Source: a virus. From it: a stretch of DNA of 64,000 nucleotides. The stretch covers positions 32,001-96,000 of IMG/VR virus record IMGVR_UViG_3300009408_000003. One strand, 5' to 3'. Shown one piece after another: positions 1 through 64,000 of the stretch (within the stretch, counting starts at the first letter, position 1; every line of letters starts with the position of its first letter). The translations under genes were made by a program, and so were the position numbers. The notes beneath the pieces were generated by a model. The model ran no database searches. It worked only from the letters and a program-made list of their open reading frames with translations, and was not told where the DNA came from.

Positions 1-3000
1 CGCTATAGCTAAATTAATATCATCTGGACTTTGTTTTAATGCTCGATTAACTACTGTTATTGTATGTTTTAAAACGTTTCCTTCTGGGTGGTGTATTGTA
101 TCTTGTCTTATGTGTTTTAGATTTAAAACACGTTTCTGTAAATCAGTAGGTAGTTTACTAAAAAGCTCTTTAAACGTTCTTATTTGCAATTTATTATTTA
201 TATTAGATTCATTTAAATATCGTTTTTCTTCTTCATTATTAATCCAGTTTCCAATTTCTTTACCTTTTATATTAGCCGGTGCATCTTTCCCAGTTACATT
301 AATACTAAATTTGACAAATTTAGTATAATCTACTTTATTATGATTACCATAATCTATAATTTGTTTATTTGTTAATGTTGTTCGTTTTTGCTGTTTTTTA
401 TACTCAACAATATCTTTTGGTTTGAATTTATCTAATGATTGTAAAAATATTACATTAATAATATCTTTTGTAGTATATCCTATTTTATTTAAAACATTTT
501 CTAATAAATCTTTACTATTTTTCTTTAATAATTGAGCCATTACTACAATATAATCTGAATCATCTATGTATGGTTTATTTATTTTTAAATTTGGAAATGT
601 TAATGATAAAAATTTTAGTTTTTCCATTAAATCTAAATAGGTTTTAGTTGATTTAGCAGATTCTATTGATTTTATAAATTCCATTCTAATTCTATTTGGA
701 CTGACATCCTTTAATGTAGGATCTTTCTTAATTGCAAGTAAGGTATCTGTATCCATGCTTCCACCTAATTTAGAAGTAAATCTAACAGCTCGTAATTTAC
801 GTAAATGATCTTCTGCAAACCTATCTGCTGCATTTCCTACTGTTCTAATTTTTTTATCTTTTAAATCTTTTATACCACCAACTAAATCAACAATTTCTTT
901 ACGATCAATATCATAAAATAGTGCATTAATTGTTAAATCTCTGCGTTTTACATCCCCCTCAATATCAGTATAATCTATTCCAGTTAGTTTACGATTTTTA
1001 CCTATATCAGTTCTAAATTGTGTTACTTCATCGCCATCTATTATAACTGTTCCATATTTTATACTGATAGTATCACATTTTAATCCTTCTTTTTTACAAA
1101 TATCAACCATTTCATCTGCTTTTGCATCGGTTGATAAATCGAAATCATGTGGCTTTTTGCCTAAAATAGCATCTCTAACTGCTCCACCTACTACATATAA
1201 TTTTTTACCGTGTTTTTTAAATGCTTTATCAATTTTTTTAACACTTGCTGGTAATGCAAGATTTAATGTATGTTTAGCTTCTGTAATTATGGTATTTTCA
1301 GTTACATTTTCTTTATTATAATTAGTAATAATACGTTTCATTATTTCTGGCGGAATTTTCTCCGTACCAAATCGTTTAAGTACTATTTTTAAAAATGTTT
1401 CTAATGCTTTATCATCAGGTTCGACACCGGCAAATAATGCTGCTTTACCAGCCCCTTTTAATATAGTTTCAGCAACTACGTGTGGAATAAATTCTTGTGC
1501 AACATGACCGGCAAATGCTATAAGACCATGACCAATTCCGCCAGTTGCAACGCCAAAAAGAGCTGTTGTAACTACTTTTATAGCTACACCTTTTAACGCA
1601 GATTTTTCTTCATCTGATAGATTTTTTCCAGACATGAAATGTTTTGCTGCTATTCCTGCATATTTAAATTCTTCTATTTCTTCTTTTGCACCGTGTTTTA
1701 TCTTAATTAAACTACCTTTTAATTTATCTTTAATAGTTTCTGCTATGGTTCGTCTTAATTTAGACTCGCCATTATGCATTTCTTGCACAAAAAAATGTTT
1801 TTCTTCATCAGACCATGTTTCTAATTTTTTACGTACATCTGCAAATTTATCAGTCGTTTTTTGTTTTATTGTTCCAGATACATTTGATTTAGATTTATCT
1901 GAGGTTGATTTATCAAAAATATTTGGTGTTGGACTTGCAGTTTTTTTACCTAATTTTTTTGTACTGGTGGTTACATAGTGACCACTAGCGTTTTTAGTAT
2001 ATACAGGTGCTGATTTATCCTTTTCAGAACCAACTTTTTTATATCTACCGTATCCAATATGTGTGAATTTGTCATCTTCACTTTCAATTATAATATTTGA
2101 GGCTAGTTCGTGTATATGTTTAAATGATACGTCATCCCATTTACGAGAAAGTTTTAATAATGGAATAATATCTAAATTTATTCGTACTGCAACTATCTTA
2201 GCTTTGTTATTTAATGCATATAAGGCCAACACTCTATGATGACCATCTAAAATATATCCGCCTTTAGAAACTACAATTGGTTTAGATAAATTAGATACAG
2301 ATTTAGTCATTAATGTTTCTACTTTATCTCTATTAATATTTTTTTGTGTAAGATTTAATTTTGATATTGGTATTTTTTCAATTTTATATGAATAACCATT
2401 AGCTTTAATATATTTTAAATAGTTTTTTAATTTACTAGATTCAATTTGTGGCATATCTTTACGAGGAATACCTAAATTTTTAAATCCTGTTGTTATATCT
2501 TCGGTTACTATACTTTCAAAAACGTTTGGTGCTTTTTTAAATAATCTGAATGTTGTTATGCTTCTACCATTAATAGTAGGCATGCCGTGTGCATCAACTC
2601 CTATATCTTTAACTACTACTTTTTTATTTTTGAATTTTCCCATTAAAATAGTATCGCCAATATCAACTGGTAATGTTATATTTTCATTCATGTATAATTC
2701 AAATTCGAACTCAATTTCCCTGTCAGCATGGGCTATTTCGCCAGATAACGCTTTTATTTGTGCTTCTGCATTTTTTTCAAGTTGAGTTTTTAATAATTCA
2801 TAACCAGCTAATGTAGCTTTTCGTGTTGCATGTGCATACCATTTTGTATATGCATTACTTGAATAAATATCAATTTGGTTATTCGGTGTCATAGCTCCAA
2901 TTACACCTGCAGGATAGAATGATACAGCTGTTACTGGGCCTTTTGGATAAGTCGGATAATTCTGATAATCTTCAACATCTTTAGTCATTATCATATTAAT

Positions 3001-3762
3001 AACCTCGTATCCTATTTTTTTAGCTCGTATTGTTGACACTTTAGAAAATGTATCGAACGTTCCAATAAAACTAGATGGCCCATCATCAGCATCAACTGTA
3101 CCGAGCGAGTTTTCATTTAATAACCATTCTTCAATTGTTTCTTTACTAATTTCAACTATTTCATTTAATTTAGATGTAACTAAATTAAAAATTGTTTTAT
3201 TGTAACTAGGAAAAGCTACCGTTTCAAAGAATTTTTTCTTTTCATCTGTTGTTCCTAATGCTAATCCGTTTCTAACGGTTGTACCACTTAATGTACTAAG
3301 TGTTGGCGCGATAAATACATATCCAGCATCTTTATATGGTTCAGTTGGTTTATTATTATCAAGTTTTCTAAAATATTTTCCGCCTAGCCTTGTTGAATCT
3401 TTTTTACCAACTACAGCAACATATGCAGTAGTATTTTCATCAAATTTACTTAAAATTTCAACTGGTTTATATGGATTTCTAATCTGAATTACATTTGATT
3501 TTGGAATATCAAACATAGTAGTTATTATTTTAAATTTTTCTTTAAAATTAAATGGTGATTTATCTTTAGAAACAACATTAGAAGTACCTATATAGATATT
3601 ATTTTTTCCGAATTTTTTAACTAAATATAAATATATTGCATAATGACCATTATGAAATGGCTGAAATCGGCCTGTAAAAATTACAATTGTTCTTTTTATT
3701 TTATCAGGTGTATCTTCTAAAAGTATTTGTTTTACTAAATAATTACTTAATTTTGTATTCAT
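1..3762 (-). CDS. Multidomain (poly)protein, 3' end outside window: HxGH nucleotidyltransferase + unknown domains + ParB-like domain + hydrophobic domain + CCA-adding enzyme + HD-type domain
   Basis: ATG at 3762; I read the frame by hand and found no stop down to position 1. Motifs: FTGRFQPFHNGH and SGTTVR (NTase); RKDMPQI and PIVVSKGGYILDGHHR (ParB-like); LYVVGGAVRDAILGKKPHDFD, RRDLTINAL and RFAEDHLRKLRAVRF (CCA/poly(A) polymerase class II); HHPEGNVLKHT (HD-type). Confidence 0.9.
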   Translation of the reverse strand, partial: MNTKLSNYLVKQILLEDTPDKIKRTIVIFTGRFQPFHNGHYAIYLYLVKKFGKNNIYIGTSNVVSKDKSPFNFKEKFKIITTMFDIPKSNVIQIRNPYKPVEILSKFDENTTAYVAVVGKKDSTRLGGKYFRKLDNNKPTEPYKDAGYVFIAPTLSTLSGTTVRNGLALGTTDEKKKFFETVAFPSYNKTIFNLVTSKLNEIVEISKETIEEWLLNENSLGTVDADDGPSSFIGTFDTFSKVSTIRAKKIGYEVINMIMTKDVEDYQNYPTYPKGPVTAVSFYPAGVIGAMTPNNQIDIYSSNAYTKWYAHATRKATLAGYELLKTQLEKNAEAQIKALSGEIAHADREIEFEFELYMNENITLPVDIGDTILMGKFKNKKVVVKDIGVDAHGMPTINGRSITTFRLFKKAPNVFESIVTEDITTGFKNLGIPRKDMPQIESSKLKNYLKYIKANGYSYKIEKIPISKLNLTQKNINRDKVETLMTKSVSNLSKPIVVSKGGYILDGHHRVLALYALNNKAKIVAVRINLDIIPLLKLSRKWDDVSFKHIHELASNIIIESEDDKFTHIGYGRYKKVGSEKDKSAPVYTKNASGHYVTTSTKKLGKKTASPTPNIFDKSTSDKSKSNVSGTIKQKTTDKFADVRKKLETWSDEEKHFFVQEMHNGESKLRRTIAETIKDKLKGSLIKIKHGAKEEIEEFKYAGIAAKHFMSGKNLSDEEKSALKGVAIKVVTTALFGVATGGIGHGLIAFAGHVAQEFIPHVVAETILKGAGKAALFAGVEPDDKALETFLKIVLKRFGTEKIPPEIMKRIITNYNKENVTENTIITEAKHTLNLALPASVKKIDKAFKKHGKKLYVVGGAVRDAILGKKPHDFDLSTDAKADEMVDICKKEGLKCDTISIKYGTVIIDGDEVTQFRTDIGKNRKLTGIDYTDIEGDVKRRDLTINALFYDIDRKEIVDLVGGIKDLKDKKIRTVGNAADRFAEDHLRKLRAVRFTSKLGGSMDTDTLLAIKKDPTLKDVSPNRIRMEFIKSIESAKSTKTYLDLMEKLKFLSLTFPNLKINKPYIDDSDYIVVMAQLLKKNSKDLLENVLNKIGYTTKDIINVIFLQSLDKFKPKDIVEYKKQQKRTTLTNKQIIDYGNHNKVDYTKFVKFSINVTGKDAPANIKGKEIGNWINNEEEKRYLNESNINNKLQIRTFKELFSKLPTDLQKRVLNLKHIRQDTIHHPEGNVLKHTITVVNRALKQSPDDINLAIA

Positions 3763-3866: not shown

Positions 3867-5483
3867 TTATCTCATTCCAGGAAGTTGCGGCTGTAATACT
3901 GGTGTTTTTTCTTGTTTAGTAGCAATAACACATGATGTCATTAATAGTAATCCGGCAACAGATGCACTGTGTGTTAATGCAAGTCGTGTTACTTTTGTAG
4001 GATCTATAATTCCAGCTTTTAGCATATTTACATATTCATTTGTTCTTACATTATATCCATAATTTTTTTTAGATGCTTCTATTTTACTAAGAATAACATC
4101 TGGCGATATTCCTGCGTTTTCAATTATTATTCTAAAAGGGGCCTCAATTGCAGTTTGTACAATTTTTACTCCTAGTTGTTCATCTTCGGTTAATGTTTGA
4201 TTTATTTTTAGATTTTTCGATGCGTTTATTAATGCTAAACCACCGCCGATTACAATCCCTTCTTCTACTGCAGCACGTGTTGCATGCAACGCATCATCAA
4301 CTCTATCTTTTTTCTCCTTCATTTCAGTTTCAGTAGATGCTCCAATATAAATTATCGCAACACCACCACTTATTTTAGCTAAACGTTCTTGAAGTTTTTC
4401 TTTATCATATTCTGATGTTGAATTTTCTATTTGTTGTTTTATAACACTTATACGAGATTTAATATCAGTTGATTTACCACCTCCGTTAATAAATGTAGTT
4501 GTATCTTTATCAATATTTATTTTTTCGCAAGTACCCAAGTGTGAAAGTGTTGCATCTTCTAATTTTAATCCAACTTCATCAGATATTACTGTTCCGCCAG
4601 TTAAAACGGCTGTATCTTCTAATATTTCTTTTCTTCTATTTCCAAATGCTGGTGCCTTTATTGCTGCTATTTTTAATGAACCTCTTAATTTGTTTACTAC
4701 GAGTGTTCCAAGTGCTTCACCATCGATATCACTTGCAATTATTAATAATGGTCGACCACTATTAGCAACAGGTTCTAGTAATGGTAATAAATCGTTTATT
4801 GTAGATATTTTTTTATCATACAATAAAATATAAGGATTTTCTAATTCGCATACTAGCGTTTCTTGATTTGTTATAAAATATGGTGAAAGGTAACCTTTAT
4901 CATATTGCATGCCTTCTACCGTTTTTACTTCAATTTCAGTACCTTTAGCTTCTTCTACAGTAATTACTCCGTTTTTACCAACTTTTTCCATAGCATCTCC
5001 AATCATTAATCCAATAGTTTCATCATTATTTGCTGAAATTGTTGCTATTTGTACAATTTCTTCTGGTGATGATACTAATTTTGAATTTTTTCTTAGGTTA
5101 TCTACTATATGATTAACCGCTATATCAATACCACGTTTTAATTCAGTTGGATTTGCGCCTGATGTAACTAGTTTTAATCCTGAATTAAATATTGATTGAG
5201 TTAATACAGTAGCGGTAGTAGTACCATCACCTGCTAAATCATTCGTTTTTGAAGCAACGTCTTTTACAAGCTGAGCTCCCATATTTTCAATTGGATCATC
5301 AAGTTCTACACTTTTTGCAACAGTAACACCATCCTTTGTAATATGAGGAGAAGAAAGTTTTTTACTTAAAACTACATTTCTACCTTTTGGCCCTAATGTA
5401 CAGCTTACTGCAGCTGATAATTTATCAACTCCTTGTTTAAGTTTCATTCTTGATTCGTTACCATGTATTATAATTTTTGTCAT
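3867..5483 (-). CDS. groL: Chaperonin GroEL
   Basis: [32 protein letters not shown] and [13 protein letters not shown] motifs; 538 aa. Confidence 0.97.
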
Positions 5484-57352: not shown

Positions 57353-57595
57353 TTAATTCATTCCGGCTATAGAATACACGTGTCTACGTAACTCTAAACC
57401 TGGATATTTTTTATTATAGTGTATATCTAATACTATATTTTTACATACTACATCAAAATCTATTGGTATATTACGTATCGATGAAACTTCTTTATAAAAA
57501 TCAATAATGTAAGTTTTTAATTTATCGGTTATTTTTATCCCATATTTATCAGCCCAATAATCAATAATATTATTATATTCGAAATCGTATGTCAT
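57353..57595 (-). CDS. Hypothetical protein
   Basis: 80-aa ORF. Confidence 0.55.
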   Translation of the reverse strand: MTYDFEYNNIIDYWADKYGIKITDKLKTYIIDFYKEVSSIRNIPIDFDVVCKNIVLDIHYNKKYPGLELRRHVYSIAGMN

Positions 57596-57831
57596 TACAT
57601 AAATTTTTTAAATGGATGTGTTTTCCGTTCTATTTCCTTTTTTATTTCGGCGAGTTCTTTTGGACTATGTGGTTTACACCACGTATCCCATTCGATTGAT
57701 GCCAAATAAGATTTCCAAGCTCCTTTATAAATATTGTAAAATTTATCTTCAGCAATTTCTTGTGGAGTTCTACTACCTTTATAATTAGCATCACGCTCTA
57801 ATTCATCAATATCAATATAATTATAACTCAT
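57595..57831 (-). CDS. Hypothetical protein
   Basis: 78-aa ORF with 1-nt overlap. Confidence 0.55.
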   Translation of the reverse strand: MSYNYIDIDELERDANYKGSRTPQEIAEDKFYNIYKGAWKSYLASIEWDTWCKPHSPKELAEIKKEIERKTHPFKKFM

Positions 57832-58000
57832 TATATATTATTGTAACGTCTTTTATCAAACCATAAACTTCTCTTTGTTCGGCTTATACCGGTCAATTTA
57901 GACATTTTTTGATTTAATCTTTCTCGTGTATCTACTATATTTTTATCTTGTATATACATAATTTTTTGGTTTAATTATTTATTTATTAAATAAAGGTACA

Positions 58001-58030
58001 AAATAAAAGTGAGAATTCTCACTTTTATTT
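58001..58030. terminator. Perfect 30-bp palindrome, terminator after the TROVE gene
   Basis: AAATAAAAGTGAGAATTCTCACTTTTATTT, 2 nt beyond the TROVE stop. Confidence 0.75.
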
Positions 58031-58032
58031 AA

Positions 58033-59652
58033 TTATATTTCGATGGTTTCTATTTCCTTAATTAATTTAGTATAACCTTTAGAGTTAATTTCAATTATAT
58101 CAAATATTCTTTCAGACCATCCAGCAATTTGAGTAACGTTTAATGCTCTATTAAAGACTGATTTTCCACCGGTTGCTCGTATGTTTACTGAAACAGTATT
58201 ACATTTAGGGTTTATTAATTTAAATTTTTTAAACAATGATTGAAATGTTCCTAATCCTGCTCTTGATGAATAATCCCATCTACCTTCACCACCATGTCCA
58301 ATAACCATATCAGAAAATATAACTAAATTATCAACTTTAGTTTTATTTTTAATAACGTCACGCAAGAAGTAATACAACCCATTTTCAGTTGCTCCACCAC
58401 AATTTCTACCCATTTTAAATGAATCTCTATTATGTTCTAATAATCCTTTTGTTCTATCCATTGGTACTAATATTAATCTATCGCCAAATAATCCAACATA
58501 TACATTTTTTTGAGAATATGCTAACATTGAACCAAATAGGTTTCCAATCATTGCAGTTGTAGTTTTTGAAAATGCTGATACCTTACTTGAACCGCCACCA
58601 TCACCACGTACTGAACCGGAGTGGTCAATTAATACTGCAGTATTACCTTCTAACATTGGAATATTTTCAACTGAATATTCTAAAGCTGTTTCTAGTCCTT
58701 TCAATATTTTAGTTTTAAGTTCATCCATGTTTGGTATTGTATCGCCTTCAAACACAATTTTACTTTTGTTATATTTAGAAACCCCAACCTTTTCAATTTC
58801 AGTATATGCCGATGCAAATCTGAATGGTAATAATTTTGATTTTAATACCTTTCTTTTGTTAGTTAATTGAGATACTGCTTCATCAACTTTATTTGGAGCT
58901 AATGTTAAAATGTTTCTTAGATTTCTAACTAAATTCATCATAGGCATACCTTGTACATTTTCAATCACATTTGTAATTGCTTCTTTTTTGGTTTCCTTAA
59001 CATCTTTTCCGGTTTCTTTAGCTGTTTTACCAGCTTTAGTCATTTCTTTTTCAAAGATTTTAGATGAATATAATCCGTCTAAAGATTCGCCATTCATTAA
59101 TCTTTTGTATGCTTCCGCATTAACTTGTGTACCTTTTGGGTGCATTAAGTTAACTAAATCAACTAAAGAAATTTCTTTCTTCTCCATTTTGTATTTATCA
59201 ATTAAATATGGATCTAATGATTCCAATTTTAATTTGAATCCTCGTTTAATTGAATTAGCAATTTTTGTACTTCCTTTTGAGAAATAATAAGCTAAGATTT
59301 CACTCATATCATCTGGTCTTTGTGCGATTTTTTTATAAAATCTTGAAGCATATGATTTTCCGGATAATCTTGGTGCTAATTCTCCTGATAACAAGTGAGT
59401 AACAGAACGCATGTGTGAATCATGTCTTAAATACAATGCAAATTTAGCAACAAATTTTTCATCAACCTTTTTTATTGCTTCTTTAATTCTATTTACAATT
59501 TCATTTTCACTTTCGTAATATGAACGTTGTAAAAAGGTAGTTAAACAAGTTGCTAACAAATCTTCTTTTGCAGTTAGTTTATAAGCTTTTTCACCCATTT
59601 CATTTATAGTAGTTGGTACTACTTTTGGTTTTCTTTTGTTAAATTTTGACAT
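58033..59652 (-). CDS. TROVE-domain Ro60/Rsr-like RNA-binding protein with C-terminal vWA domain
   Basis: NEMGEKAY, FVAKFALYLR...MRSV, RPDDMSEIL, YLIDKYK, MMNLVRNLRNI, SKLLPFRFASAY, MIDAS IDHSGS, FSDM, GWSERIF. Confidence 0.9.
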   Translation of the reverse strand: MSKFNKRKPKVVPTTINEMGEKAYKLTAKEDLLATCLTTFLQRSYYESENEIVNRIKEAIKKVDEKFVAKFALYLRHDSHMRSVTHLLSGELAPRLSGKSYASRFYKKIAQRPDDMSEILAYYFSKGSTKIANSIKRGFKLKLESLDPYLIDKYKMEKKEISLVDLVNLMHPKGTQVNAEAYKRLMNGESLDGLYSSKIFEKEMTKAGKTAKETGKDVKETKKEAITNVIENVQGMPMMNLVRNLRNILTLAPNKVDEAVSQLTNKRKVLKSKLLPFRFASAYTEIEKVGVSKYNKSKIVFEGDTIPNMDELKTKILKGLETALEYSVENIPMLEGNTAVLIDHSGSVRGDGGGSSKVSAFSKTTTAMIGNLFGSMLAYSQKNVYVGLFGDRLILVPMDRTKGLLEHNRDSFKMGRNCGGATENGLYYFLRDVIKNKTKVDNLVIFSDMVIGHGGEGRWDYSSRAGLGTFQSLFKKFKLINPKCNTVSVNIRATGGKSVFNRALNVTQIAGWSERIFDIIEINSKGYTKLIKEIETIEI

Positions 59653-59670
59653 AATTTTTATTGTTTTAAA

Positions 59671-60040
59671 TTAGTAATTTCTTTGTTTTTGTAATTTGTT
59701 TAACCAGTCTAATTCCTTAGCCGTTAATAATCGATAAAATCGTTTACCATTACTTTCATATCCATTGTTAAATAATGAAACGAATTCTTCGGGTGTATAT
59801 GTTCCATGACAATAATATAATCCATTAAGAATTACAATAGGGGTTGAAGTTGAATTAAACTGTTTTTGTAATTTTAATTTACCTACTGCATCTATAACAC
59901 CAATATGCGATTCGCTTCTCTAACCAAAATGCATCATTACCTTCGTGGATAATATCTACATTTTCATTTTCTGAATTTAATTGGGTTACAAATTTTCCAA
60001 TTAAACTCCTTATATCGTTTACTGTTATAATTTGTCTCAT
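59671..60040 (-). pseudogene. Frameshifted hypothetical gene
   Basis: ATG overlaps the upstream stop (ATGA). The first frame stops after 53 aa; a second frame open from 59919 to 59671 supplies a plausible C-terminus. Confidence 0.45.
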
Positions 60041-60543
60041 AATGTTAATAATTTTTCGATGTAATCGAACATTACTTCATATTCTTTGACATATATTTTA
60101 TTTTTTAAATTTGGAAATTCACTTTTATATTTTTTATACATTGATGAATTTGTCATTAATGAATACAATACATTTGATATTACATCACATAATTTCACAT
60201 ATATTGCTAATTTATTTTGTGATAAATTTAAAAAATAATTATCATTATGACGTTCTTTTCTATTTTTTCCCTTTTCATCCGTACACGCATAGATTAAATC
60301 CGCAACGGGAACACCAGCAATATTTCGTATATCATTATAAGTTACACGAGCATCTTCAATTAAATCATGCCCCCAAGCTCCCATTTCAGTAATCTGTACT
60401 TCTACTTTACTAGATAACAGATGTTTCCATTTTATTGATTGAGCAGTTACCATTTTTAGATGAAATGAATATGGTAAAGCTGTATCATATTTTTGGTTGC
60501 AGACAATATCATGCTGTTTAATACAATAATTTTTAAAATCCAT
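60037..60543 (-). CDS. RelA/SpoT-type HD domain, small alarmone hydrolase (SAH/Mesh1-like)
   Basis: PYSFHL, HDLIEDARVT, VADLIYACTD, VKLCDVISN; no synthetase domain. Confidence 0.8.
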   Translation of the reverse strand: MDFKNYCIKQHDIVCNQKYDTALPYSFHLKMVTAQSIKWKHLLSSKVEVQITEMGAWGHDLIEDARVTYNDIRNIAGVPVADLIYACTDEKGKNRKERHNDNYFLNLSQNKLAIYVKLCDVISNVLYSLMTNSSMYKKYKSEFPNLKNKIYVKEYEVMFDYIEKLLTL

Positions 60544-60907
60544 AATAATATTTTTTTTTATTTTATGATTATAATATCTAAAACGTATGCAATAAACAAG
60601 GTATAGATGCTATTGATATCAATTGAATAATTAAACCTGAAACTAAATATACCGAATCTTCATTAATCCAAAATTTAATATTAGTTAAACAGATAAAAAT
60701 ATACAATATTCCCACAAAAGGAAGATTCCATAAAATCAATTTAATTTTTTTCATTATTTATAAAATTAAAAATATATTATTATCCGTTTACAAACGTTTC
60801 CAATTTAGGTATAATTTCGTTTCTAATCTTGATTTTTGAATAAACTTAAATGTGTATTTTAGTGAATCATCAGTAGTTTTATAAGTGTATTCCATAATTT
60901 CTATTTT

Positions 60908-61225
60908 TTAATATGAACTAGATGGCCTTATTTGATTTTCTAAGAATGTAGTACTTTCAAATTCATCATCACTATGATTTGTTAATGAATGAAAATATTC
61001 AGATAATTCATTAGCCAAACCAACTAGTTTTGAATCGTCTCTCCAATTTTGGATAGTACAGTCATTCATAATTCTTCCTAGCATACCACCACCTAAATAA
61101 TTTTGATATGCGGTCATCAAACCACCTTCATATTTTCCATTATCTATTGTATCAAGTGCAATTTCAATTCCACCTCCTCTATGTGAATAATCTAATCTTT
61201 CAGTTATTTTTTCAAAATCTCTCAT
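60908..61225 (-). CDS. Hypothetical protein
   Basis: 105-aa ORF directly after the promoter at 61267-61299. Confidence 0.65.
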   Translation of the reverse strand: MRDFEKITERLDYSHRGGGIEIALDTIDNGKYEGGLMTAYQNYLGGGMLGRIMNDCTIQNWRDDSKLVGLANELSEYFHSLTNHSDDEFESTTFLENQIRPSSSY

Positions 61226-61266
61226 AATTTAAAATTTTAATGTTTATGTTTTAATAATTTATACTG

Positions 61267-61299
61267 TAAATATACAAAATATATTTCATATATCCTAAT
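61267..61299 (-). promoter_or_regulatory. Phage early/middle promoter
   Basis: TTAGGA-N18-TATATTTA, just after the RNA operon terminator. Confidence 0.65.
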
Positions 61300-61309
61300 T
61301 TATTTGCAT

Positions 61310-61348
61310 AAAAAAAAGGGACTAAAATTAACTAAAATTTTAATCCCC
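61310..61348 (-). terminator. Intrinsic terminator closing the tRNA/ncRNA operon
   Basis: GGGATTAAAATT/AATTTTAGTCCC stem followed by 8 U. Confidence 0.8.
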
Positions 61349-61464
61349 TATAGTTTAAACGATAATATCCGGCTTTTTAGAATTATCATGATTATTCATC
61401 ATAATTTTCACGTATTCGGTTTTATTAGATACTGGCTTTAATTATCGTTTATTTATTATAAGGG
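61346..61464 (-). ncRNA. Unknown structured small RNA (about 119 nt)
   Basis: TAAACGATAAT/ATTATCGTTTA 11-bp stem, CCCT-TATA/TATAGGG closing stem, internal ATTATGAT/ATCATGAT hairpin. Confidence 0.45.
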
Positions 61465-61523
61465 AAAAATTGATATGAGAATATATTAATTTAATTTCAA
61501 TACTTACCACTTATTATATTATT

Positions 61524-61646
61524 GGTAAGGGAATATTTAAAAGAGTGTCATTGTTTAAAAACGCAGGGTCGAATCTGCTACCTTTTATTTTGAATATAAA
61601 TGCTCTACTATGAGCTAATTTTTACGAAGTACCTCTGTTTATTACC
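61524..61646 (-). ncRNA. Y-RNA-like element containing a complete tRNA-like cloverleaf (61555-61624, anticodon position UCA)
   Basis: Acceptor TAAAAAT/GTTTTTA, D arm GCTC/GAGC, anticodon arm TTTAT-ATTCAAA-ATAAA, T arm GCAG-ATTCGACC-CTGC; flanked by GAGGTACTTCG and ACACTC. Confidence 0.6.
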
Positions 61647-61711
61647 ACTTGCCGATATTTTAAAGAACGTTTTTGTTTCTTAATTCATATTGAATAGAAA
61701 AACATTTTTTG

Positions 61712-61785
61712 TATTCCGAGTAGGACTTGAACCTACGACCACCAAGGTATAAGCTTGGGACTCTGACCAACTGAGTTATCGGAAT
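61712..61785 (-). tRNA. tRNA-Ile (UAU)
   Basis: ATTCCGA/TCGGAAT acceptor, CCAAG-CTTATAC-CTTGG anticodon arm, GTAGG-TTCAAGT-CCTAC T arm; no encoded CCA. Confidence 0.9.
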
Positions 61786-61789
61786 AGTT

Positions 61790-61828
61790 ATGAAGAGTCA
61801 TTGTGGCAAGAGAACCGAGACTCTTCAT
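61790..61828. repeat. Perfect 10-bp hairpin immediately 5' of tRNA-Ile
   Basis: ATGAAGAGTC/GACTCTTCAT with 19-nt loop. Confidence 0.7.
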
Positions 61829-61989
61829 TGTTTGTTATAGATTATTTTTTGTTGTTACTTGGATAAACCTATTTTCTTAAAAATTCCATAGTTTAGACGA
61901 AGTCAAACTTTAACCTTATTATGTCTGATTTCAATTGTTTTGAATGAGCAATACTGGATACATAATCATCCATAGCGTAAAAACAACTC

Positions 61990-62067
61990 TGGTAGCGAGA
62001 GCAGGATTCGAACCTGCGTCGTTCAGCTTATGAGACTGAGCTGGGGCCATCTCCAGTCTATCTCGCG
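61990..62067 (-). tRNA. tRNA-Met (CAU), initiator-like
   Basis: CGCGAGA/TCTCGCT with C1 mismatch, loop CTCATAA, GCAGG-TTCGAAT-CCTGC; CCA encoded. Confidence 0.88.
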
Positions 62068-62210
62068 ATTTATTTTTTAAAAAATTAAACATTGTTGTAA
62101 ACTACGTTAGTAGTATCAGGAATATTTTCACTGGGTTTCCTGTTTTTATGCCAGATTTATTTTTTATAATTTCATACTGAAGTATGATTTTTTAAAAATA
62201 AGAGAAATTT

Positions 62211-62256
62211 GTAATGAGTGTTTTTTTCATTTAGACAATCGAAGTAACTCATTTAC
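62211..62256 (-). ncRNA. Minimal Y-RNA-like stem (no tRNA domain)
   Basis: GTAAATGAGTTACTTCG...AAACACTCATTAC; same end motifs as 61524-61646. Confidence 0.5.
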
Positions 62257-62280
62257 TTACTACTTATTTATATTTTATTG

Positions 62281-62353
62281 AGCTTTTAATGAGATTTGAA
62301 CTCATGATCTCGTTCTTACCAAAAACGTGTTCTACCTGCTGAACTATAAAAGC
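62281..62353 (-). tRNA. tRNA-Thr (GGU)
   Basis: GCTTTTA/TAAAAGC, CGTTT-TTGGTAA-GAACG, ATGAG-TTCAAAT-CTCAT; no CCA. Confidence 0.9.
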
Positions 62354-62359
62354 AATTTA

Positions 62360-62471
62360 AGAGTTTACTAGAGGCTATTGGGGGCTATCAGCGGAGAATA
62401 TTTTCCTCTGTTAATTCAGATTCCCAATCTTAATTTCCGTCTAATCTAGCCTTTTACGCTTGATAAACTCT
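62360..62471 (-). ncRNA. Unknown 112-nt rod-shaped RNA
   Basis: Nested stems AGAGTTTA/TAAACTCT, AGGCT/AGCCT, ATTGGG/CCCAAT and an apical GAG..CTC hairpin; GC-richer than flanks. Confidence 0.5.
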
Positions 62472-62575
62472 GTATTAAATTATAATCATGATTGTTCGGT
62501 CACAGTATGTTCTTCTAAAACTAATACCCCCTCTGTATTTTGATTATCTTTACAGATATTTTAAATAAATTTTTG

Positions 62576-62650
62576 TACTCCAGATGGGGTTCGAACCCAT
62601 AAAATTTAGTTTCTAAAACTAAAATGTCTAGCCATTTGCATCACCGGAGC
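62576..62650 (-). tRNA. tRNA-Leu (UAG) with short variable loop
   Basis: GCTCCGG/CTGGAGT, TTAGT-TTTAGAA-ACTAA, ATGGG-TTCGAAC-CCCAT; A73; no CCA. Confidence 0.85.
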
Positions 62651-62659
62651 ATATAAAAT

Positions 62660-62990
62660 AAAATGCTGAGATTACACATTTTCTGTTAATACTTTTGTTT
62701 TCGTACCGCCAAACTGCTAAGTTTTTTGTTAAAAACGTATCCACTCATAACTTATGAGTTTATCAACATTACCGCCTTTTTTAAAGAGTGGCATTTCTCT
62801 TATCATAATAGAACTACTCGATTTTTGTTTTTCTCCCAACCTTTAGAGCTGTTAGTGGTCGCTAAACCATTAGATGCAAACTCTAATCAATTATCATCCA
62901 CCTTGCGAGTTTCAGATAAACTACATTCCCGAATGGGTGTAGTATTAGGTAATTTGTTTTCTATTATTGTTAGGGTCTTTACGTTTTATC
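62660..62990 (-). ncRNA. Large structured ncRNA, GOLLD-like (short form)
   Basis: Dense hairpins (CTACA-CCC/GGG-TGTAG, C-GCAA-G tetraloop, ACTCATA/TATGAGT, TTAGAG/CTCTAA). The 3' end GTGTAATCTCAGC resembles GOLLD termini as I recall them. Lies between two tRNAs. Confidence 0.45.
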
Positions 62991-63000
62991 AATTTAATGA

Positions 63001-63074
63001 TGGGATGTATAGGGTTTGAACCTATGACACCTTGTGTTTAAAAACAAGTGCTCTACCAACTGAGCTAACTTCCC
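63001..63074 (-). tRNA. Atypical tRNA, Val-like body with 8-nt anticodon loop (UUUUAAAC)
   Basis: GGGAAGT/ACATCCC acceptor with an A-A mismatch, canonical D arm GCTC-AGTTGGTA-GAGC, CTTGT/ACAAG stem, ATAGG-TTCAAAC-CCTAT. Confidence 0.7.
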
Positions 63075-63077
63075 TAA

Positions 63078-63620
63078 AGTTAATTTTTCACTTCGATGTG
63101 CCCTAACGGTTGTTTCATACTCTTTTGAAGTACAAAATGCAACACACCAACTGTGTTTCAGATTACCAATCCTACTGTACGGTACTTCTAGTCTACACCG
63201 GAAAACAATAATGTTCCTTTCAACTATAATACTGATTAATTGCTCTAATACTGGCGGTACTTGAACTCAAAATCTACAACTTATTCTGTTTTGGTTTTAT
63301 TGAGGTAGTATCTTATAAGATAGGTACTAACCTATTTGAACTCACCGAACGGCTCTGTTCTTATCCTTTCCTAAGGGTCTTACTTTAATTCAATTTCCTA
63401 AAAAATTGAAAACTTTCAATTTACTCCATATTCACCATCGGTAATTAATGATGCCCCGTATAGGTTTACGGTTGAAATGTTGCTTGTTTAAACAAACCTA
63501 GTTATAGGCGGGTAGATGTGAATTTCTATCCCTTTCGATATCTCACGATACCATATTTTTGTCTTAACCGAAGTTAAAGTAGGATGTTAAGCCACCCTTG
63601 TATCTTTATTAATGCAGTAT
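63078..63620 (-). ncRNA. Large structured ncRNA, ROOL-like (about 540 nt)
   Basis: More than 10 hairpins and a possible TAGGTTT/AAACCTA pseudoknot. The 3' half (AATCAG..TAGTTGAAAGG..CCGGTGTAGACT..AAGTACC..GGTAATC..GAAACAC..TGGTG..CAAAAG..GCACATCG) matches ROOL RNAs as I recall them. 5' boundary approximate. Confidence 0.6.
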
Positions 63621-63809
63621 ATTCATTATTTCTTATGTAAGTACCAATGTATAAATAATTATTTGACAATTACATGAGGTTTCAATGTTTATGTCGGATA
63701 TGTACCATTATAATGATACATAATTAACATTATTAAATAAATGACTTTAATAATACATTAATGTTTTTCAATATTTTAATGAACGTATTTTTTTAATAGT
63801 TTTGTGTTA

Positions 63810-63842
63810 CAAAGATACGAAAAAATATTTAAATATCCTAAT
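63810..63842 (-). promoter_or_regulatory. Phage early/middle promoter driving the ncRNA/tRNA operon
   Basis: TTAGGA-N18-TATCTTTG. Confidence 0.7.
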
Positions 63843-63876
63843 TTTTTCTTAGTTTTTTTTAATTATTTTTAAAGTA

Positions 63877-64000
63877 TTAAATTCTACTTTTCAAAGTTGT
63901 TATCTCTGCTTCAATTCGTCTAATATCTCTATCAGATAATTTTATCATATTAGTACCATGTTTTTCTGGTTTTGTTTTACGTTTCAATTGTGACTGTAAA
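63877..64000 (-). CDS. 3' end of a hypothetical gene starting beyond the window
   Basis: Open frame ...IRRIEAEITTLKSRI* with stop at 63877-63879. Confidence 0.5.
   Translation of the reverse strand, partial: LQSQLKRKTKPEKHGTNMIKLSDRDIRRIEAEITTLKSRI

Follow-up and report, generated by a model that had tools for sequence, protein, structure and literature searches.

A phage Ro60 gene linked to a covarying family of Y-like RNAs with exchangeable tRNA-like cargo

From bacteria to humans, Ro60 and Y RNAs have been conserved, and we know of no established role for the tRNA-like part of bacterial Y RNAs. Here, we describe a Ro60 gene and a family of Y-like RNAs encoded upstream of it, at positions 58033-63842 of a 64,000-nucleotide stretch of viral DNA (hereafter the window), which comprises bases 32001-96000 of the 120,327-bp viral record IMGVR_UViG_3300009408_000003. 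All coordinates are window positions unless marked as genome positions. The record is 71% complete, has a G+C content of 28%, and carries nearly all of its genes on the minus strand, on which the features of the span lie unless stated otherwise. PHROG matches to a baseplate wedge protein, a major head protein, and GroEL indicate a tailed phage with myovirus-type baseplate and head genes; the GroEL chaperonin is encoded at 3867-5483 (phrog_5725, E = 3e-175). The span analyzed is only the downstream end of a tRNA region of about 12 kb, which extends past the end of the window and contains 31 tRNA genes, all on the minus strand (genome 93.7-105.2 kb; ARAGORN), with an HNH endonuclease gene located among them.

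We consider it likely that the span consists of two units at the end of this tRNA region, with Ro60 and the Y-like RNAs as the functional core and the giant RNA GOLLD as a separate passenger. The first unit (63841 to 61316) would contain RNA only, in the order GOLLD, tRNA-Leu, a structured spacer, tRNA-Thr, Y-like RNA copy 1, tRNA-Met, tRNA-Ile, and Y-like RNA copies 2 and 3. The second unit (61298 to 58001) would encode two small uncharacterized proteins, a small alarmone hydrolase (SAH), and Ro60.

The gene at 58033-59652 had been named Ro60/TROVE in an earlier sequence-only reading of this DNA, and database matches bear this out. Its product of 539 amino acids (aa) matches PF05731 (5.8e-14; 52.5 bits against a cutoff of 23), phrog_850 (1.7e-37), and the structures of a Thermus phage Ro60 in PDB (9KOP and 9L5Y; 4e-12). 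A DHSGS motif of the MIDAS type is seen in the translation and points to a C-terminal vWA domain. The nearest Ro60 proteins of GenBank phages, 52-56% identical, belong to crAss-like phages, and the Ro60 protein of the viral relative L006 is 78% identical.

Conserved repeated noncoding blocks were spotted by comparison of the region with three viral relatives found via Ro60 (L005 to L007). Alignment of these blocks yielded a 19-base pattern, AAGTRGTRA-N6-GAG-N-TACTTCG. When IMG/VR was scanned with it, 22 stretches were matched, distributed over about 19 contigs, of which many derive from phages of 100-430 kb. In total, about 19 viral contigs contributed 29 copies of the Y-like RNA. Their length ranges from 58 to 136 nt, and all copies with enough sequence end in TTCYCTT. 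Helix P1 is formed by AAG[U]RG and CYCUU, closing the 5' and 3' ends of the RNA on each other, and helix P2 is formed by N6GAG and CUCN6, mostly with one bulged base. An invariant UACUUCG box occupies the inner junction and is followed by AA, giving CGAA, in 7 of 26 copies. The middle of the RNA is variable: some copies have a short linker or a hairpin there, others a T-arm hairpin or a tRNA-like body, which is either permuted or in natural order. The R/Y pair of helix P1 matched in all 26 copies in which it was scored (26/26), with the 3' arm located independently of R. Cognate P2 arms pair at -7.8 kcal/mol, compared to -4.7 kcal/mol for noncognate arms, and none of 2,000 permutations was as good. 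In the alignment, 91.3% of the cells are paired, versus 79.8% after shuffling (0/500) and 41-63% with slid partners. Full pair switches are seen, for example AU 11 / UA 11 and GC 17 / AU 8, and G-U pairs are present in the helices.

A covariance model, R1, identifies five copies in the genome, all on the minus strand and within the tRNA region; three of them lie inside the window, where Y-like stems had been noticed before. Copy 1 (62197-62268; 73.3 bits, E = 6e-12) is a short form without tRNA-like cargo, and its minimum-free-energy (MFE) fold recovers both P1 and P2. Copy 2 (61524-61653; 60.3 bits, E = 3e-9) carries a tRNA-like body in natural order at 61624-61555, which scores 44 bits with the Rfam tRNA model and is not called by ARAGORN. 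This cargo has an acceptor stem composed entirely of A-U pairs, a T stem of 4 bp with an 8-nt loop, and the anticodon loop AUUCAAA. Copy 3 (61457-61515; 28.2 bits, E = 0.009) is degenerate, lacking the GAGNUACUUCG box and keeping P1. Between homologous copies, the anticodon loops of the cargo differ freely. The possibility that atypical tRNAs upstream of Ro60 form one conserved family was rejected, because L005 and L006 carry an initiator-like tRNA-Met(CAU) instead. A conserved box, ACGTTCTTTAAAATAT, was observed 5-35 nt upstream of Y-like copies that are not preceded by a tRNA (61654-61700 in the window; also in L005, L220, L228, L234, and L236), and may be a promoter of their own.

Linkage of these RNAs to Ro60 was assessed in 21 records selected by the RNA pattern alone, three of which were previously known via Ro60. 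TROVE is encoded in 18 of the 21 records, and of the three records without it, two are fragments (5 and 27 kb), whereas only 1 of 27 large GOLLD-bearing phage records, used as a control, encodes TROVE. The Y-like RNA lies on the TROVE strand at a distance of 0.15-8 kb, in genomes of up to 434 kb, and in about 10 records it is situated within 0.6 kb upstream. R1 found no match in 100 GOLLD loci (0.87 Mb), and its matches in 80 SAH loci (1.09 Mb) were confined to five loci with Ro60 and enough flank; three to five copies were found upstream of Ro60 in every Ro60 relative. The linked Ro60 proteins are 28-81% identical to that of the window. In the crAss-like phage csAssE-Sib, three copies are located directly upstream of an annotated "Ro sixty-related protein," and the annotated tRNA-Tyr and tRNA-Lys of this phage lie inside two of these Y-like scaffolds (L368:5639-5914; OR575929.1). 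Similarly, a tRNA-Gln of the crAss-like phage cr111_1 lies inside a Y-like scaffold directly upstream of Ro60 (L367:4890-5019; MT774387.1). Because TROVE accompanies the RNA in 18 of 21 records as opposed to 1 of 27 controls, and because R1 matches in the sampled loci occur only beside Ro60, we conclude that Ro60 and the Y-like RNAs are a genuine linked module.

As their criterion for bacterial Y RNAs, Chen et al. used a location no more than 4 kb from Ro60, on its strand (PMC4201824). The window copies lie 1.8-2.6 kb upstream of Ro60 on its strand, inside this distance of about 4 kb, and P1/P2 covariation and the MFE folds give them the shape of a Y RNA, 60-130 nt with the ends paired in a long bulged stem. 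Judged by these sequence features, the family probably represents the Y RNAs of this phage group. Like YrlA and YrlB (PMC4201824) and Yrl1 and Yrl2 of phage phiLo (PMC12135203), its members are small, present in multiple copies, and encoded on the Ro60 strand within a few kilobases. As in known Y RNAs, a long bulged stem is built from the two ends, and some copies have a CGAA-containing box near this stem; the occurrence of a long form with a tRNA-like part and a short form without it parallels YrlA and YrlB. Unlike known Y RNAs, the phage family is characterized by the conserved boxes AAGURGURA, GAGNUACUUCG, and UUCYCUU, is devoid of GNCGAAN0-1G in the window copies, and has interchangeable cargo. 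Whereas YrlA is permuted (T - acceptor loop - D) and has no anticodon arm, the cargo of window copy 2 is in natural order and includes this arm. A literature search found no paper linking crAss-like phages with Ro60 or Y RNAs, which is no proof of novelty, and a Ro60-linked RNA family with swappable tRNA-like cargo seemingly has not been described.

The RNA-only unit starts at a promoter-like site, P1 (TTAGGATAT ... TATCTTTG; 63810-63841), agreeing with a promoter proposed earlier at 63810-63842. It ends at an intrinsic terminator, a 14-bp stem followed by TTTTTTTT (61316-61349), close to the terminator previously placed at 61310-61348. The intervening 2.5 kb or so had been described as noncoding, and indeed no minus-strand open reading frame (ORF) of at least 60 aa is found between promoter and terminator. 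A second promoter-like site of the same motif family, P2 (61267-61298), marks the start of the protein operon, and a palindromic terminator-like hairpin, found in a hairpin scan and not assigned to a strand, directly follows Ro60 (58001-58030). About 10 copies of the motif TTAGGATAT-N15-TAnnTTTG are present in the genome, on the coding strand only, including those at 63841, 61298, 53549, and 39892 and six others. The motif is kept upstream of tRNA-Leu in L006, and over 15 other viral contigs have it upstream of GOLLD, 0.9-1.26 kb from the GOLLD 3' end; all eight promoter-bearing contigs that were tested were verified as true GOLLDs. Its downstream box fits TAnnTTTG, which we take to be the -7 element of Bacteroidota promoters. 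The motif, which is common to many GOLLD-bearing IMG/VR contigs, suggests a sigma factor of the Bacteroidota type, and, given this type of promoter and the nearest GenBank-phage relatives of Ro60 in crAss-like phages, the host of the phage probably belongs to the Bacteroidota.

The conserved core of GOLLD is located at 62663-63150, where Rfam RF02032 is matched over the whole of its 416 positions (model 1-416; 152.2 bits, gathering score 150, E = 1e-40), which settles the identity of the GOLLD-like RNA of the sequence-only reading. The atypical tRNA of that reading is nested inside GOLLD, as a tRNA-like insert in the linker (63074-63001; Rfam tRNA, 59.8 bits) with an 8-nt anticodon loop (UUAA) and no encoded CCA. 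This insert, for which ARAGORN leaves the anticodon undetermined, is situated 338 nt from the GOLLD 3' end, a place at which 4 of about 112 other GOLLD loci have ordinary tRNAs. The full-length conserved core, the variable 5' domain, the linker tRNA, and the location in a phage tRNA array are features of known GOLLD RNAs (RF02032; Weinberg et al. 2009), which self-assemble into a 14-mer nanocage as resolved by cryo-electron microscopy (10.1101/2024.12.08.627333). In comparison with these, the RNA described here is a divergent member, barely over the gathering score (152 versus 150 bits), whose embedded tRNA has an anticodon loop of 8 nt.

About 650 nt separate the promoter from the GOLLD core, and this stretch (63151-63800) had been read as a ROOL-like RNA, making two giant noncoding RNAs. 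With the Rfam covariance models, ROOL (RF03087) gave no match at the gathering score genome-wide and none at E <= 1 in 59600-64000, and this identity was rejected. That the Rfam GOLLD model ends at 63150 and that a homolog is detectable by nhmmer for only part of the stretch (63385-63173) would still suit a separate large RNA, ROOL-like or new. This homolog, however, is the 5' flank of another GOLLD core, that of L062, which is Rfam-verified (186 bits) and likewise has an embedded tRNA. Moreover, the stretch and the core come and go together: the block 63783-62651 is missing as one unit in L006, in which tRNA-Leu(UAG) directly follows the conserved promoter. GOLLD RNAs in the literature are longer than 800 nt and consist of a 3' region that is conserved and of a 5' region and a linker that vary, the linker sometimes containing tRNAs (10.1101/2024.12.08.627333). 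The promoter spacing shared with other GOLLD contigs and a raised G+C content from about 62300 to 63620, where UUCG- and GNRA-capped hairpins are frequent, also assign the stretch to GOLLD, and a separate RNA is hardly credible. There is thus one giant RNA, not two, namely, a single GOLLD RNA of about 1.1 kb that comprises the variable 5' domain (63151-63800, with an approximate 5' end), the tRNA-like insert in the linker, and the conserved core. Among the families named by the earlier reading for a covariance scan, Rfam models recovered GOLLD and the tRNAs and neither ROOL nor YrlA.

At the gathering score, Rfam has six tRNA matches in the span; ARAGORN names tRNA-Ile(UAU), tRNA-Met(CAU), tRNA-Thr(GGU), and tRNA-Leu(UAG), and one of undetermined identity. 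Both programs call the four tRNAs that had been recognized before: tRNA-Leu(UAG) at 62575-62650, tRNA-Thr(GGU) at 62280-62353, tRNA-Met(CAU) with an encoded CCA at 61990-62067, and tRNA-Ile(UAU) at 61711-61785. The absence of an encoded CCA in four of the five tRNAs of the span, as noted earlier, extends to 29 of 31 tRNAs genome-wide, the exceptions being two tRNA-Met genes. A CCA-adding enzyme had likewise been reported in the window and was located, not as a stand-alone protein, but as a module of class II architecture (residues 855-1317) in an ORF of 1913 aa. It consists of a PolyA_pol head (PF01743, 5.8e-26), an RNA-binding domain (PF12627, 1e-5), and an HD domain (PF01966, 4.5e-7). This ORF, which occupies 1-3762 and runs off the window start to genome position 30021, also contains a cytidylyltransferase-like domain and long unassigned stretches. 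Between tRNA-Leu and tRNA-Thr lies a conserved structured spacer of about 220 nt (62354-62574), which is 70% identical to its counterpart in L006 and, in a two-sequence fold with it, forms a long closing stem with 11 compensatory pairs. The spacer has no Rfam match, and a search for wider homologs with a 15-nt pattern gave 120 matches, all of them due to chance and none with extended similarity. A perfect 10-bp hairpin (AUGAAGAGUC ... GACUCUUCAU; 61790-61828) ends 4 nt before tRNA-Ile.

The gene at 60037-60543 encodes a protein of 168 aa, previously described as a SpoT-type HD protein. It has no Pfam HD match at E 0.01, and its assignment as a SAH of the RelA/SpoT type needed profile and fold searches. 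A profile of 30 homologs matches in PDB only RelA/SpoT-type hydrolase domains (SpoT, Rel, Mesh1, and SAH; E = 5e-8). The AlphaFold (AF2) model (pLDDT 96.7) matches Pseudomonas aeruginosa SAH over its full length (TM 0.77-0.80), as well as Mesh1 and RelH (TM overall 0.7-0.8), and H59 D60, E63 D64, D120, and N124 are invariant in the 30 homologs. The protein thus shares the fold over its whole length and the catalytic HD...ED...D...N residues with P. aeruginosa SAH (6YVC), Mesh1 (3NQW), and RelH (7QOD), and differs from known SAHs in its identity of about 20%, in being phage encoded, and in its position directly upstream of Ro60 in this clade. The latter arrangement is found in L005, L006, L136, L137, and L146 and in more distant phages; Ro60 is present within 8 kb in only 8 of 80 SAH loci. 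SAH enzymes reverse the pyrophosphorylation of tRNA CCA ends, as shown for MESH1 and ATfaRel (10.1101/2021.04.30.441581). Most likely, the cotranscribed phage SAH would remove a 3'-pyrophosphate from alarmones or from tRNA CCA ends.

Upstream of the SAH gene, an ORF of 105 aa (60908-61225) is absent from relatives, L006 having only about 230 nt at this place, and gave no lead in Pfam, PHROG, NCBIfam, or Atlas. Between SAH and Ro60, the interval 59671-60040 contains an ORF of 53 aa and then an open stretch of 82 codons in another frame without a start codon. This insertion, absent from the relatives L005 and L006, looks like a small frameshifted or slippery gene. The 226-nt gap that separates SAH from Ro60 was considered as the site of a Y RNA and rejected, since the 82 codons are open in the other frame and folding equals that of shuffled sequences (z = -0.06).

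Several observations weigh against the Y-like RNAs being partners of Ro60. Single copies have weak thermodynamic z-scores (-0.2 to -1.1). The genome L232 (IMGVR_UViG_3300037424_001372; 324,744 bp, rated complete) has a Y-like RNA with tRNA-like cargo and no TROVE match. Many carrier phages may be relatives of one another, in which case the counts do not represent independent events. GNCGAAN0-1G is absent from the minus strand of 57500-64000, and a single match on the plus strand is at chance level. No copy matches Rfam YrlA (RF02553), for which the best score in the genome, 19 bits against a gathering score of 69, falls on neighboring tRNAs; with this model, the YrlA-like RNAs already known from CcrColossus (42 bits) and Bacillus phage G (36 bits) are recovered. 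Finally, the cargos in crAss-like phages are annotated as ordinary tRNAs, and the scaffold could thus be a leader-trailer stem of tRNA precursors. In a broader form, this explanation holds that the repeated stems are scaffolds for tRNA-precursor processing or termination, or a selfish repeat of tRNA arrays, to which the interleaving of stems and tRNAs (some stems start 3-14 nt after a tRNA) and a T-run after 12 of 26 copies would correspond. However, the stems are missing from the 100 GOLLD loci, although these are rich in tRNAs, and from the 72 SAH loci that lack Ro60, tRNAs being present in many of them. Their distance from TROVE never exceeds 8 kb and they share its strand, an arrangement that holds across Ro60 proteins with identity as low as 28%, and the G-U pairs of the helices argue for selection at the RNA level. 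We regard a processing scaffold or selfish repeat as improbable, and favor the Y-like RNAs as Ro60 partners. Even less probable, by a clear distance, is that the tRNA-like body of copy 2 (anticodon UCA) and the GOLLD-embedded tRNA (UUAA loop) act as working suppressor tRNAs. With the anticodon loops AUUCAAA and UUUUAAAC, they would recognize UGA and UAA, but the genome uses the standard genetic code with real stops (TAA, 124; TAG, 21; TGA, 17) and short read-through tails, and an alternative code or stop recoding as an explanation of these loops was rejected on account of this stop usage. In addition, the body of copy 2 has an aberrant T arm and is rejected by ARAGORN. The free variation of cargo anticodon loops among homologs, taken with the use of the standard code, speaks against the cargo serving in decoding.

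The sequence-only reading had further proposed an integrated module that supplies, repairs, decoys, or shields tRNAs against host defenses. Its link between Ro60 and Y-like RNAs stands, whereas GOLLD and RtcB are not conserved co-members and ROOL is absent. Synteny in relatives preserves SAH directly upstream of Ro60, but none of the three Ro60 relatives, including one complete genome of 175 kb, has GOLLD. Of RtcB and Pnkp, for which the remaining genome had been suggested as a place to look, RtcB was found (387 aa, 3e-106; genome 115.6-116.7 kb), outside the window and 24 kb from Ro60, and an Rnl2-type ligase, an archease, and a PNK-type kinase were not found in this 71%-complete record. RtcB stands side by side with a NADAR domain protein and an N6/N4 DNA methylase at genome 114007-116739, upstream of the tRNA region. 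The presence of Ro60, Y RNAs, and RtcB in one genome recalls the Salmonella rsr-yrlBA-rtcBA operon, from which the phage differs in the distance of RtcB from Ro60 and in that RtcB is not coinherited with Ro60 in related phages, being encoded in 1 of 21 Ro60/Y-RNA records versus 1 of 27 controls. RtcB, Rnl2, archease, and PNK kinase as coinherited partners of Ro60 are not supported. Because GOLLD and RtcB do not co-occur with Ro60, the island is only partly supported as a conserved unit, and GOLLD is an independent passenger of tRNA arrays, outside the Ro60 module. It might still be argued that GOLLD, the tRNAs, the Y-like RNAs, SAH, Ro60, the CCA-adding enzyme, and RtcB are one counter-defense system, as every part occurs in one genome (31 tRNAs, a CCA-adding domain, RtcB, SAH, and Ro60 with its RNAs), SAH enzymes can restore pyrophosphorylated CCA ends, toxSAS act in antiphage immunity, and tRNA-like cargos are possible decoys. 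Against this, GOLLD occurs with Ro60 in 1 of 27 records and in none of three relatives, RtcB is as rare beside Ro60 as in the controls, SAH is accompanied by Ro60 in 8 of 80 loci, archease, Rnl2-type ligase, and PNK-type kinase were not found, and the cargo anticodon loops vary by copy and have no common target. We judge a single counter-defense system of this kind unlikely; a wider anti-defense purpose is possible, without support from coinheritance.

Returning to Ro60 and the Y-like RNAs as the functional core, we infer binding, processing, and a biological role by analogy with bacterial Rsr-YrlA/YrlB, with the Rsr-Y RNA-PNPase systems of Deinococcus and Salmonella, and with Thermus phage phiLo, whose Ro60-Yrl-PNPase complex was formed in vitro (PMC12135203). 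In such a scheme, tRNA-processing enzymes would cut the Y-like RNAs from a polycistronic, tRNA-rich transcript, and Ro60 would bind the bulged stem of the released RNA. The cargo would then dock a tRNA-recognizing enzyme or an exonuclease partner, such as host PNPase, and the resulting Ro60-Y particle might handle misfolded or damaged structured RNA during infection. It is tempting, though decidedly speculative and in our estimate doubtful, to view the Y-like scaffold as a general cassette presenting tRNAs or their mimics to Ro60 in Bacteroidota phages, from crAss-like phages to jumbo phages of 430 kb. In this phage, it would serve jointly with SAH, the CCA-adding enzyme, and RtcB in counter-defense: decoy tRNA bodies would soak up host toxins directed at tRNAs, and tRNA ends that had been damaged would be cleaned and rebuilt.

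GOLLD, Ro60, and SAH are individually new members of known families, and the Ro60-linked RNA family is the part worth following up. For genome annotation, "tRNA" genes beside Ro60 in crAss-like gut phages sit in Y-like scaffolds and may not be ordinary tRNAs. With a constant stem and exchangeable cargo in three to five copies per phage, the family provides a natural variant series for what Ro60 recognizes and what the cargo recruits.

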